Assembly (NCBI GenBank): GCA_049999805.1
Contig: JBNGIO010006231.1
Location: 48,413 to 68,412 of the forward strand
Direction: 5' to 3'
Source: Folioceros fuciformis
Taxonomy: Eukaryota
Length of the DNA stretch: 20,000 nucleotides
Below are positions 4,364-14,932 of this stretch, one piece after another; positions within the stretch are counted from its first letter, which is position 1, and the number at the start of each line of letters is the position of its first letter. The notes under the pieces are model-generated. The model ran no database searches and was not told the origin of the DNA. It saw only the letters and a list, made by a program, of their open reading frames with translations. The translations under genes and the position numbers were made by a program.

Positions 4364-7260
<2,897 letters not shown>

Positions 7261-7484: not shown

Positions 7485-9700
<2,216 letters not shown>

Positions 9701-9893: not shown

Positions 9894-11079
9894 TTAGACA
9901 AAATCTACTCTGTCTTTCTCGGCTAATTTCCTCACAGCAGAGTATCTCACAATGTGCAAGTCATCAGGCGTCATGTCTACCGTCTCGTCTCCCCTGCAGA
10001 AGATCACATGTCCAAAGTCATGGCACCCATGTCATGTCTTTCACGCAAGGCCAGCTAACAGCAACAAAAGCGGCACGCTGTGTCTTACTTCTCATCCAGC
10101 TGGATGGACCCGATGTTGTCTTTACTCCGGCAGAACACATAGGTGTCCAGCTTTGGAGTGGGCACTGAAGTACAAGTTAAGCAGCAAGACAAAGAGAATG
10201 CCAAAGCAAAACTAGTACGACGGCAATCACAAGCGTTGATGCGGATACTCATGTCGACTTCTGCGTTGGAGTCCACCTGCCTGAGCATGCTCCTATATCC
10301 CTCTGGTAATCTGTTCAAAACCGAATAGTGCAAGTGCTTCTCGAGAACGTCACTGTACCTGCCACCGACGTGCACAGTGGTCACATGAACATCACAGCAT
10401 GATGCTTCCACCACAGGATCCCGTGAACGTGCCTGAACTTGGAAACTTCAAGCTCACCACAATGCAACATTGAACGCTTCGACCTGTGGTTCTGCGAGGT
10501 GATGCTCACCTTTCCGCATACCGCTTCTCTTCTGCCGACAGCCTATCGAAGGTCTCTGGACTACTTCCAACGTACAGCACATGTTTCTCAATCTGCAGGC
10601 GAAGAACAAGGCTAAGAAGGAAGTGAGCGGAGACGCAAATTTCTCACAAGGCTTGGCAGGGCAGGGCAAGGGCAAACAAGCGTACCTTTGAAAGCCGGGT
10701 ACGCAGATATGATCTGAGCAGAAACTGGATCCTGTTCAGATCCATGCGGTACATGGACAGAACCAGCTCCTGAGTACCTTCTCCCTCCAATTCCATTATA
10801 CTCCGCTCCTGCGCACCAACAAGGACTAACTCCCAGCCAACGCGGCTTCTTTTCCAGAACCAACGGGACAGAAATAGAACCGCGCAGGATGCAAGGGCGT
10901 ACCACGAGCTCAATTCGCTCCCGAATCCGCTGGACAAGCGGAGTTCGGACGGGCAAAATTTCAGGTGCCACCTTCTCGTTGCGCCACACTGCATTGAGCA
11001 GTTCCGCATCACTGCGGCCATCCCCGAACTCTGTATCGTCCCAATCTCCTGCCGTGGATGCTCCTGGGCTCTGGTCCAT
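9894..11079 (-). CDS. SLD5: DNA replication GINS complex subunit SLD5 (GINS4), 6 exons
   Basis: DAELLNAVWRNEKVAPEILP, MYRMDLNRIQFLLRSYLRTRLSKIEKH, RLSAEEKRYA, PTPKLDTYVFCRSK and DDLHIVRYSAVRKLAEKDRVDFV*; exons join in frame via GT-AG introns. Confidence 0.93.
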
Positions 11080-11239
11080 AGTGGGAGTCCGGCAGACGGC
11101 GCAGTCAGACTAGGATAGCTGCGACCGCGAATGCATTCAAATCTGTGACGGAAGGAATCGGGGTGTGAAATCGCAGCCTGATTAGGGTCCGAAGGAGATC
11201 GAAACAAACAACGTTGAAGCCAACGCAGTAGTGACGCGC
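11080..11239. promoter_or_regulatory. Short divergent promoter region, SLD5 / PPR-DYW
   Basis: 160 bp separate ATG 11079 (-) from the proposed PPR ATG 11240 (+). This depends on the inferred PPR first exon. Confidence 0.5.
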
Positions 11240-14176
11240 ATGACGAGGAGAATGAAGAGAAGTGGTGGGTTGGGCTGGCGTCCGCTTCTGTCCTGCCTAG
11301 TTGTGGGCAGCGAGCACACTGGAAGCAGAGGTTTGGAGGAATGTTGCAGGTATTTGTCGTATTTCCAGGTCGCAGTGGAGCGACCTGGATTCGCTGCAGA
11401 CCCACTGCAGTTCTGGGACAAGAGGTTGAACAAGGTAATTCATGTCACAGATTGGTGCCTTAAGCATGGCTACGAGGTAGATGTTGTTGGGGCGTTTAAT
11501 TGTTGCAATTTGCAGAAAATCCTGAACTCTTCGGACTCCCTGCACAGCGTGACGAGGAACGCGCTGCGGGTTCAGGTGCAGCCCTCCTGGGTCGAGGAAC
11601 GTGGACAAGGATTACAGGCTGGGATTCCGGTTAGAGAACCTGGGAGGTCTGGTCTTGAACTTTGGATCATTCGGTAGGGTCTGGCAGGCTTGGAATGAGA
11701 GCATTCACACTCCTGCCCGTTTTGCAGGATAAGAACCCTGGATGGAGGGCCTCTTGATGTTGGACTCTGGACGAAAATATGTGAGGAGGGAAAGCTCTGT
11801 GAGGCAGTCCAGGTCTTGCACATCTTCGCGCAGGGTGGGTCGTATGTTGCAGGATCGCTCTTGTATCATGTCCTTAAGGGTTGCATTTCGAGGAAAGACT
11901 TGGTCGTTGGCAAACGTGTTCATGATCTTACTGTTGCAATCGGGTATGAGTCAAACGTGTTTCTGGCGAACCATCTGATCCGCATGTATGCTTCTCATGG
12001 GAGACTCCAGGAAGCAATGCAGGTGTTCAGCAAGCTTGCTGCGCCAGATTCGTTTATGTGGGATTCCATCATCTGGGCGCATGCTGATCGTCAGCAGCCT
12101 GCACAGGCTTTAAGTTTGTATCAACGGATGCTAGAGTCCGCGGTGAAGCCGAGTAACTATACATTTGTGGCGGTGCTGAAAGCTTGTGCTGGTGCAAAGG
12201 ATTTGGCGTTTGGCAAGCGAGTTCATGCAGATGTTCTCAAGAGTGCTGAGGAGCCAGACAGACTTGTTTGCAACTCTTTGGTGGACATGTACGCCAAGTG
12301 TGGAAGCTTGAAGAAAGCGCGGGAAGTGTTTGACACGTTGTCCACAAAAGATGTGGTGACATGGAATACCATGTTTGGAGGGTATGCTCAGCATGGTTTT
12401 GGTCACGAAGCTCTCATGCTTTACAGCGAAGGGATGTCTCGGAAGTCCTTCACTCCGGATAGTGTTACATTTGTGTGTCTCCTCAAAGCGTGCGCCATCA
12501 TTGGAGCTCTATGTGAGGGCAAACAGCTCCATCGTGAACTTCAGAAAGCAGGCTTGGAGGCTGACGTGGTGGTTGGAAGCAGCCTTGTAGATATGTATGC
12601 GAAGTGTGGCAGCTTACCTGATGCTCGTGACGTTTTTGACGGAATGTCTTCAAAGAATGTGGTGACTTGGACTTCTATGATTTCAGGATATGCTCAGAAT
12701 GGTCTAGGTCACGAAGCTCTTACCCTTTACAAAGGTATGCAACAGGAAGGCGTCACCCCAGCAAACCAAGTTACTTTTGTTTGCCTACTAAACGCTTGTG
12801 CCAGTATCGGAGCTCTAGCTGAGGGGAAGGAGCTTCATTTCCAGATTCAAGGAAGAGGTCTGGAGTCTGATGTGGTTGTCGGCAGCTGCCTGGTGGACAT
12901 GTATGCAAAATGCGGTGACATAGAAGAAGCAAAACGAGTGTTTGATGGATTGCACTCCAAAAACGTGGTCACCTGGACTGCCATGATCACTGCGTATTCT
13001 CATGGTGGGCTTGTTCAAGAGGCCCTCATGCTTTATGAAAGTATGCAAAAAGAGGGCATTACTCCCGCAGACTCATTTACATTTGTCTGCCTGCTGAAAG
13101 CATGTGCCAGTGTCGGAGCATTGCAACAAGGAAGGGAACTTCATTCTCAAATAGAAGAAAGGGGCCTCGAAGCTGACATGGTCATTGGCAACAGCCTGGT
13201 AGACATGTATGCAAAATGTGGGAATTTGGGCAGTGCCCGTCGAGTGCTTGACAGATTGCCCAGACCCGATGTCGTGACATGGACTGCTTTGTTGAATGGG
13301 TACGCCCAACAGAACGACAGCCAAATGGCAAGGCAGTGCTTTCAAGAGATGCTACAGCATGGGGTTGAACCAGACCATGCTACCTTCACCTGCCTACTGG
13401 TGGCCTGCAGCCACGAGGGTCTCGTGAATGAGGGACAGCAGTATTTCAAGATGATGAAGGAAGATTATGGCATCACACCCAATTTATATCACTACAACTG
13501 CATGGTTGATCTTCTTGGACGGTGTGGCCACCTAGCTGACGCAGAGCTTATGTTGCAAACCATGCCATTTGATGGCGACGAGGTCGGCTGGACATCCTTG
13601 CTTACGGCCTGCAAAACACATGGTGATGTAGACCGTGGAAGGCGATGCTTCGACCGTCTCATCCAGTTGCAACCCCAAAACTCAGCCGCGTACATACTTC
13701 TGACGGATTTGTACTCCAGTGCTGGAAGGTGGAGGGATGTAAGCAAAATAGAACACTTGCGAAGATCGGCAGGTGCTAGCAAGATGCCTGCAAAGGCTTG
13801 GATTGAGGTGGACAGCAAGGTGCATTCCTTCAGCGTGGGCGAAGAAAGGGCTGACATCTCCTCGAAACTGAGGAGTGTGAATCTCCTGCTGAACCAGGAA
13901 GCAGAACTCAGCAAGCCATCCATGAAGCTAGCATCTGAGAAAGAACTGGAGGATTCATTGTGCGGACATGCTGAGAAACTTGCTCTGGCATATGGTCTCC
14001 TGAACACTCCAGACGGCACAACTTTACGTGTCACTAAGAACCTTCGGATGTGTGATGACTGTCACACTGGCACCAAAGTGATATCCAGAATTGAGCAGCG
14101 AGAGATCATAGTCAGAGATGCACACCGGCTTCACCACTTTGTGGATGGATTTTGTTCTTGTGGAGATCGCCATTAG
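11240..14176 (+). CDS. PLS-class pentatricopeptide repeat protein with E1-E2 and a variant DYW (DYW:KP, DRH-ending) domain; putative organellar RNA editing factor
   Basis: The long exon (about 11728-14176) encodes about 17 P/L/S motifs (e.g. SLVDMYAKCG, VVTWT, TFVCLLKAC), E1/E2, then KMPAKAWIEV..HAEKLA..KNLRMCDDCH..CSCGDRH*. The upstream same-frame ORF (ATG 11240 or 11252, basic targeting-peptide-like) joins by a 54-nt GT-AG intron 11674-11727 that removes two stops. A further in-frame intron at 11435-11515 is possible. The 5' end is less certain. Confidence 0.93.
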
Positions 14177-14263
14177 TTTGTCTCTTTTAAGAGACGTGTG
14201 AATAACGTGATTTTGGTGAAAGCCTTCGTCCGGATTCCTTCCAACTTCCCCCTTTTCACGGCT

Positions 14264-14932
14264 ATGGCTGCCTTACAGTGCCTCCATCTTCAGGTTGCGG
14301 CGCCTGCAACGCACCCGCGGCGATATGGCCCTGCGTTGGAGCGACCAGCGGTGGCGGCGACTACCTCGGGAAAGCTTTCATGGACGTCGGCAATGCAGGC
14401 ATGCCCTCTGGTGAAATCGCTGGAGTATCGGCAAGCTCGGGCCATCCAGGTTTGTAGCTGCTCCCTTATTCCCGAGGGTTTGGCCTCGAGAGCGAGCCTC
14501 TTTGTTTGACGTCCGGAGAACCGTGTGCAGGCCCCGTTCACGGTCCATGCCGCCTGGACCAGGCGCTCCAAGGGAGACCAGAGCGCTCCGAGTAAGAAGA
14601 GGTCGTGGGGTCAGCGTGCAGACAAGTACATGAAGCCCTTCATGCTGGACGTGTACATCTCGAAGAAGTACGTGAACGCCAAGGTCACTCACAGAGTAAC
14701 GGGCAGGGTGGTGTCCGTGGCTACAAGCAACGCAAGGGACATGAGAGAATCTCTGCGCTCCCTTTCGGATGACCACGCCTGTAAGGTCATCTCCAGACTC
14801 CTCGCTGAGCGGACAAAAGAAGCAGACGTTTACAGTGTCAAATTCGAGCTTCGGAAGAACGAGAAATTTGAAGGCAAGCTGGCACTGGTAGTGAACACTG
14901 TGGCAGAGGAGGGGATAACGGTCATGGTGTAA
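14264..14932 (+). CDS. Organellar ribosomal protein uL18-like (L18p/L5e family), probably plastid-targeted, 2 exons
   Basis: Exon 14264-14449 is transit-peptide-like (MAALQCLHLQVAAPA...), followed by intron 14450-14530. Exon 14531-14932 encodes AWTRRS..SWGQRADKYMKPFMLDVYISKKYVNAKVTHRVTGRVVSVATSN..LLAERTKEADV..FEGKL, typical of plant uL18-like paralogs. Confidence 0.85.

Follow-up and report, generated by a model that had tools for sequence, protein, structure and literature searches.

A nuclear gene of Folioceros fuciformis for a PLS-class PPR protein with a DRH-subtype DYW:KP domain, a probable factor of U-to-C RNA editing

Hornworts possess pentatricopeptide repeat (PPR) proteins that end in a DYW:KP domain, among them those of the DRH subgroup (Gerke et al., 2020; Gutmann et al., 2020, as cited in the available text of PMC9478123 and PMC12548569). 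The accessible part of PMC9478123 divides the hornwort KP proteins into two subgroups, DRH and GRP, with the KP proteins of tracheophytes clustering apart from them. More than 1400 PPR proteins have been reported for hornworts, and for Anthoceros agrestis the literature, as far as its text was accessible, describes many full-length KP proteins, whose number correlates with the number of U-to-C sites. U-to-C editing is the pyrimidine transition in RNA editing for which a natural enzyme has not been demonstrated, the evidence coming from proteins designed on consensus sequences and from gene numbers that correlate with numbers of editing sites. A native DYW:KP gene that is intact and expressed can therefore serve as an object for testing. 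Here, we describe a PPR gene with such a domain on a stretch of 20,000 nucleotides from Folioceros fuciformis (contig JBNGIO010006231.1, positions 48,413 to 68,412 of the forward strand), hereafter the window, to which all coordinates refer. An earlier reading of the letters of this stretch, the original prediction, had assigned positions 13781-14176 to the DYW:KP domain of an intact native reverse-editing factor. From sequence comparisons we consider it probable, with some reserve, that the locus is a nuclear gene for an organelle-targeted PLS-class PPR protein with a DYW:KP domain of the DRH subtype, which would most likely act as a U-to-C editor.

Translation of 13781-14176 gives 131 residues followed by the stop codon TAG (14174-14176), so that the domain itself occupies 13781-14173 on the plus strand, as delimited by translation, Pfam, profiles and trees. 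The Pfam family DYW_deaminase (PF14432) matched residues 706-784 of the 786-amino-acid frame with an expectation value (E) of 7.3e-34 and 115.9 bits against a cut-off of 24. Among 1.84 billion representative proteins there were 2367 matches at E<=0.001 and 27 at E<=1e-30, and the match to DYW_deaminase is far beyond chance. The domain begins with KMPAKA (13781-13798, plus strand) in place of the PG box, as had been predicted, yet the eponymous Lys is a Met: the class-naming dipeptide reads M-P rather than K-P, while the P-A-x-A pattern is present and PG is gone. The Lys that precedes M-P aligns with a Lys that both classes conserve at the second position ahead of the Pro. Following FSVGEE, the xHP segment is absent, which in the HMMER alignment appears as a gap of four residues relative to OTP86. 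The HAE triplet at 13967-13975 provides the zinc-binding His and the catalytic Glu and has Ala for the PG-type Ser. It is followed by a Lys (14036-14038) equivalent to K88 of the designer KP proteins and K915 of OTP86, by a Met at the M92 position (14048-14050) and by the zinc ligands of CDDCH (14051-14065). The C-terminus, CSC-G-DRH (14153-14173), consists of CSC at 14153-14161 and of DRH at 14165-14173 where DYW would stand in the PG class. None of the four DYW:PG hallmarks (PG box, xHP, HSE and DYW end) is found in this domain. In all these respects, the loss of the PG box and of xHP, the Ala in HAE, the retained catalytic Glu and zinc-binding cysteines and the DRH end, the original prediction had described the domain correctly.

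All zinc-binding and catalytic residues are present (H63, E65, K86, C91, C94, H95, C125 and C127). Counted along the alignment to 7O4E, with the numbers given in the accessible part of PMC7611903, H63, E65, C91 and C94 correspond to H892, E894, C920 and C923 of OTP86; K86 corresponds to K915, which forms a pair with the catalytic Glu, and K1 to K823, the lysine ahead of the PG box. Residues H15-G62 (13823-13966, plus strand) are equivalent to the gating domain, H837-G891 of OTP86, and number 48 instead of 55. Positions 64, 88, 92, 113, 116, 119 and 133 are cited below in designer-KP numbering, in which K86 of the window domain is K88. The residues diagnostic of the class are HAE, the missing xHP, M92, A116 and the DRH end. 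An AlphaFold2 model of the domain reached a mean predicted local distance difference test score (pLDDT) of 86, and its best matches in the PDB were a synthetic PPR-DYW protein with RNA (9kfx; E 3e-15, template modelling score 0.78) and the DYW domain of OTP86. No KP domain structure turned up in the copy of the PDB that was searched.

The class was assigned from 205 collected relatives, of which 199 complete domains were extracted and aligned. A quick IQ-TREE search used 101 of these 199 rows, namely all 45 rows with HAE and without HP plus random subsets within groups, and a careful search used 47 of the 101, again chosen at random within groups. The quick tree separated a PG side of 36 rows from a KP side of 65 rows with a support of 98 in the Shimodaira-Hasegawa-like approximate likelihood ratio test (SH-aLRT), and the window domain fell on the KP side. 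All 36 PG-side rows had HSE and 23 ended in DYW, while 46 of the 65 KP-side rows had HAE. Within the KP side the window domain belonged to a clade of 25 rows (support 95), in which DRH was the commonest ending (12/25) and GRP occurred in four. In the careful tree the PG side had a support of 99/91 and appeared in 98% of the 200 bootstrap trees; the clade of the window domain had a support of 90/88. Profiles built from the two tree sides with the window domain left out scored it at 201.0 bits (KP), 191.4 bits (KP minus its own clade) and 153.8 bits (PG), a difference of +37.6 to +47.2 bits in favor of KP. For calibration, the same difference was computed for 98 held-out domains and exceeded zero in 8 of 8 strict KP boxes and in 1 of 63 strict PG boxes. 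Constraining the window domain to the PG side of the careful tree cost 35.09 log-likelihood units (lnL), with p 0.0296 in the approximately unbiased (AU) test. The profile comparison and the phylogeny named as checks in the original prediction thus sustained its class assignment, grouping with the PG domains being rejected on the careful tree. Hence the domain is supported, on the grounds of these comparisons, as DYW:KP and not DYW:PG.

Several columns of the alignment bear on how typical the domain is. The Met at the K position of the box recurs in 3 of the 65 KP-side rows, as opposed to Lys in 49. The middle column of HxE is Ala in 44 of 44 HAE/no-HP rows and Ser in 66 of 66 PG rows, which is true by construction of the two sets. 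Counted from the position of the class-naming dipeptide, the window domain has 130 residues, whereas 22 of the 25 clade rows have 132 or 133; it is three residues shorter than the clade norm, and the shortening sits in a variable linker. A frameshift was considered as the origin of the short linker and rejected, the other two frames of 13840-13990 containing no DYW-like sequence.

Compared with the hornwort proteins of the DRH subgroup, the protein shares the PLS array, E1 and E2, the (K)PAxA box, the lack of xHP, HAE, M92, the DRH end and a supported clade. It differs in the Met for the eponymous Lys, in the Trp at box position 6 (W6), in the linker shortened by three residues, in the lack of a GHVP-T-like segment and in an identity of at most 69% to any protein of the collections searched. 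Four proteins of the hornwort Nothoceros aenigmaticus are among the closest named relatives: P0207 shows 64% identity over 227 amino acids and P0230 69% across the domain, and P0067 and P0036 lie inside the 25-row clade. Searches of protein collections for sequences of near length (62 matches among 382 candidates) and of shorter length (45 of 332) returned nothing above 69% identity. The named fern proteins (from Adiantum and Ceratopteris, with 49-55% identity) formed a separate clade with a support of 98. The hypothetical KP-type proteins of Adiantum capillus-veneris and Ceratopteris richardii resemble the window domain in the KP-type box, HAE and the lack of xHP, but mostly have E instead of G at position 64 and F- or G-type endings. 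The hornwort placement of the clade agrees with the hornwort DRH and GRP subgroups in the accessible text of PMC9478123, just as the statement in the original prediction that the class belongs to lineages with U-to-C editing (hornworts, some lycophytes and ferns) agrees with the literature as far as its text was available.

With the designer proteins KP2 and KP3 (GRP-based) and KP6 (fern-based), as described in the accessible parts of PMC9478123 and PMC11845758, the window domain has in common the domain class, K88, the catalytic Glu and the zinc ligands. Natural sequences that end in GRP, on whose subgroup KP2 and KP3 were designed, have the same G64 and V113. The designer proteins are consensus designs with proven activity, whereas the window domain is a natural DRH-type sequence whose nearest design, KP1, has not been reported active. 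The endings differ as well, with DRH in the window domain, GRP in the source subgroup of KP2 and KP3 and F at position 133 in KP6. The solved DYW:PG domains, namely OTP86 DYW (7O4E/7O4F), DYW1 (7W86) and the synthetic PPR-DYW protein with RNA (9KFX), share with the window domain the deaminase fold with an inserted gating domain, HxE...CxxCH, the equivalent of Lys915 and the C-terminal CxC. In contrast to them, the window domain has no PG box, no xHP and no DYW triplet, Ala for Ser in HxE and Met for Val before the first Cys; its gating equivalent is seven residues shorter, and the identity is 38-47%.

Upstream of the domain, the stop-to-stop frame 11699-14176 is open for 825 codons and contains about 20 PLS and E motifs; the list of open reading frames begins it at TTG 11816, giving 786 amino acids. 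Pfam matches comprise PPR_2 (E 1e-91), PPR (E 5.9e-83) and E_motif (PF20431, residues 602-664, E 6.9e-15). Cut by standard motif lengths, the PPR array (11753-13579, plus strand) has 18 motifs in the order P-like, L-S, four P-L-S triplets and P2-L2-S2, and is followed on the same strand by E1 (13580-13681) and E2 (13682-13780), delimited by motif lengths and Pfam. The combination of a P-L-S array, E1, E2 and a DYW-type domain within one polypeptide is the architecture of PLS-class PPR editing factors. The main exon (11728-14176, plus strand) comprises all of these and the stop codon. Since the frame lacks an in-frame ATG before codon 95, the start codon must come from upstream exons. A candidate first coding exon extends from an ATG at 11240 to 11434 on the plus strand and would encode a basic N-terminus, possibly an organelle presequence, that is in frame after splicing. 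It is followed by intron 1 (11435-11515, plus strand), an 81-nucleotide GT..AG intron evident from the junction of an RNA-derived contig against continuous DNA, and by a candidate exon 2 at 11516-11646, or to 11673 with an alternative donor. The putative GT..AG intron 2 would accordingly span 11647-11727 (81 nucleotides) or begin at 11674 (54 nucleotides), with a polypyrimidine-AG acceptor ending at 11727. Starting at ATG 11240, removal of intron 1 and use of either intron-2 donor yields a single open frame, 924 or 933 codons long. Both introns proven by RNA-derived contigs (11435-11515 and ~14450-14530) are exactly 81 nucleotides long, as is one of the two candidates for intron 2.

The PPR gene is transcribed. 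None of the listed sequencing runs is registered as RNA; X3 and X5 were taken as RNA-derived solely because their contigs skip GT..AG introns that are present in the DNA run X1. In the case of X3, which has the same organism label as X1 and stems from another study, the skipped stretches are the two 81-nucleotide ones just mentioned, both contained in X1. At the 5' end X3 covers 10902-11432 and then 11514-11755, one contig joining 11432 to 11514 (with an ambiguity of 2 nucleotides at the junction) where the X1 contig is unbroken over 10800-12910. Further X3 contigs cover 11800-14126 and 14098-14446 with 0 differences. The gene is also conserved in a sister species, organism B, which diverges by about 4.5-7.3% in the coding part and by 8-10% in the flanks. 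The contigs of organism B, which leave small gaps within 11732-14126, show no indel where they cover the main-exon frame; indels occur just outside it (+2 at 14178, -1 at 14248, +3 at 11203 and +2 at 11205), those at the 5' end (11203 and 11205) all lying upstream of the candidate ATG at 11240. Six of 216 in-frame differences were examined individually; four were synonymous and two were toward the family consensus. The organism B contig has 105 letters between 11432 and 11732. In organism C, one in-frame deletion of 12 nucleotides (13918-13929) affects the linker of the gating segment that is already three residues short in the window. Over the S-motif segments (12241-13288) the summed contig depth was in the thousands in all four runs, up to 75,897 in run X12, a depth that reflects the very many near-identical PLS motifs of these organisms.

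The proposed mode of action, including organelle targeting, RNA target, editing direction and chemistry, is predicted. The P, L and S motifs would bind a chloroplast or mitochondrial transcript with one nucleotide per motif and would thereby position the C-terminal zinc enzyme on the pyrimidine that follows the S2-bound base at a distance of four nucleotides, the spacing at which PG-type editing factors act. With a PPR code that we take to be ND for U, TD for G and TN or SN for A, the motifs would recognize roughly 5'-nUnnUUnAAnAGnUG(A)U(A)nn-[edited base]. The DYW:KP domain would then most likely convert the uridine at this place to cytidine at a deaminase-like site in which His63, Cys91 and Cys94 would hold the zinc together with Glu65, and Lys86, at the K88 position, might serve as the attacking amine by analogy with the proposal for the designer KP enzymes. 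For the latter, the accessible literature reports that K88 is required for U-to-C editing in KP2, KP3 and KP6 and that its replacement abolishes U-to-C and raises C-to-U editing. The model proposed there has K88 attack C4 of uridine to give a Schiff base. The remark in the original prediction that the amination chemistry is poorly understood has thus been overtaken in part by this lysine model, although a lysine shared by both classes does not explain what makes KP enzymes aminate.

A number of observations weigh against the gene encoding a working U-to-C editor of the KP class and have to be set against the evidence above. In the domain, Met for Lys and W6 in the box as well as S17 and L119 depart from the KP consensus. 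The Trp is also found in 53 of 66 PG domains, the fold and all solved relatives are of the PG type, and a first AU test, on the quick tree, did not reject placement on the PG side (p 0.534), the constrained tree being 0.91 lnL better than the incomplete free search. In a FastTree of all 199 domains, moreover, 97 of 194 inner branches were unresolved and no well-supported set formed around the window domain, and K88 does not discriminate between the classes because Lys is present in 195 of 199 domains across both. Nevertheless, it is extremely improbable that the domain is an ordinary DYW:PG cytidine deaminase in which a few residues are unusual: the profiles, their calibration, the diagnostic residues, both trees and the AU test on the careful tree all place the domain with KP, and the quick-tree AU comparison is uninformative because the short free search ended on a poorer tree than the constrained one. 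Other points concern the gene as a whole, namely the lack of an ATG before codon 95 in the main exon, the in-frame stop at 11696-11698, which precedes the PPR frame and is put 30 codons ahead of the first motif, and the unspliced state of the sole RNA-derived contig over candidate intron 2 (11514-11755). These would suit a decaying or non-translated paralogue of a large PPR family, which we regard as quite improbable in view of the 825 open codons, of transcription with one upstream intron spliced, of the single frame from an ATG that either of the two GT..AG donors restores, and of related organisms in which the covered main-exon frame is free of indels (organism B, with indels directly outside) or carries a deletion that keeps the frame (organism C). 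The word intact in the original prediction accordingly fits the 825-codon open frame and does not extend to the 5' end, where the candidate ATG lies in a putative upstream exon and the putative intron 2 is retained in the RNA contig.

With regard to function, the claim that engineered DYW:KP proteins edit U-to-C held for KP2, KP3 and KP6, the only ones of seven designer KP proteins that edited according to the accessible text. KP1, designed on the DRH subgroup, is not among the editing designs described there. A paper of 2025 states, in its available part, that the activity of natural KP proteins is still unknown, and our search of the literature brought up no native KP protein that had been tested functionally. 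In the window domain the gating equivalent is shortened, the GHVP-T-like segment kept by most clade members is missing, and the model is of low confidence in the shortened gating segment (mean pLDDT 59 for residues 41-50 and 53 for residues 51-60); four further codons of the linker are gone in organism C. Purified KP6 gave no U-to-C editing in vitro with any added amine donor in the experiments described in the accessible text. The protein might therefore be an RNA-binding specificity or stabilizing factor whose KP domain depends on a partner or has lost catalysis. We judge this unlikely, considering that the zinc ligands, Glu65, Lys86 and the C-terminal CSC-G-D are all intact, that short divergent linkers occur in other natural KP domains (121-131 residues in 14 of the 65 KP-side rows) and that the remaining 10-residue blocks of the model have mean pLDDT values of 81-97, residues 41-60 and the last residue excepted. 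A working editor of another direction, performing C-to-U editing or both reactions, has to be weighed as well. KP2 and KP3 are U-to-C-only designs, but KP6 edits in both directions in human cells, and small changes switch its direction: the exchanges E64G, L113V and F133H turned KP6 into a C-to-U-only enzyme, as the accessible report has it. The window domain natively carries G64, V113 and H133, besides the W6 common in PG domains. On the other hand, the GRP-ending natural sequences P0015, P0019, P0021 and P0028 also carry G64 and V113, and since such sequences lie behind the U-to-C-only KP2 and KP3, the effect of these two residues is context-dependent. K88, which in the same source restrains C-to-U editing by KP6 and is needed for U-to-C editing, is kept in the window domain, and the numbers of KP proteins follow the U-to-C sites in A. 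agrestis. Taken together, a C-to-U or bidirectional editor appears rather unlikely, and a native U-to-C factor of the DRH subtype remains the reading that we prefer.

The gene is a typical one, one of many DYW:KP members of a very large and well-described family, given the more than 1400 hornwort PPR proteins and the many full-length KP proteins of A. agrestis noted at the outset. Nothing was found that sets this copy above its paralogues in informativeness, apart from the somewhat shortened gating segment. It comes, however, from the DRH subgroup, for which no designed protein has been reported to work. It is conceivable, but in our estimate improbable, that the ortholog group of this gene is shedding the N-terminal strand of the beta-finger of the gating domain while keeping every catalytic residue, the three missing residues of the window domain and the further four codons lost in frame by organism C, a sister species, pointing that way. 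If this were true and the protein active, the latter would represent a minimal, 'ungated' KP aminase of natural origin, the autoinhibitory finger of the DYW:PG enzymes would be dispensable for U-to-C editing, and the gene would offer a compact native scaffold for the subgroup whose consensus design has not been reported active.

The locus is compact, gene-dense and nuclear. On the minus strand, a CNOT11 exon (4647-4982; Pfam E 2e-16) and, on the plus strand, exons of an isocitrate/isopropylmalate dehydrogenase gene (7620-8740; Pfam E 4e-27) represent housekeeping neighbors. In the region 10612-11240, the minus strand carries an SLD5/GINS-like gene that faces the PPR gene head to head. Its start at 11079 is only ~160 nucleotides from the candidate PPR start at 11240, and the RNA-derived contig 10902-11755 spans both 5' ends, so that the SLD5-like and PPR transcripts seem to overlap head to head. 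A uL18-family gene within 14098-14932 (Pfam PF00861, E 3e-8) begins ~100 nucleotides downstream of the PPR stop codon, and in two species an RNA-derived contig links the PPR 3' end to spliced exons of this gene. Farther downstream, the segment 16001-18000 has a GC content of 0.40-0.42, compared with 0.48-0.60 elsewhere, and contains no open frame of at least 110 codons.

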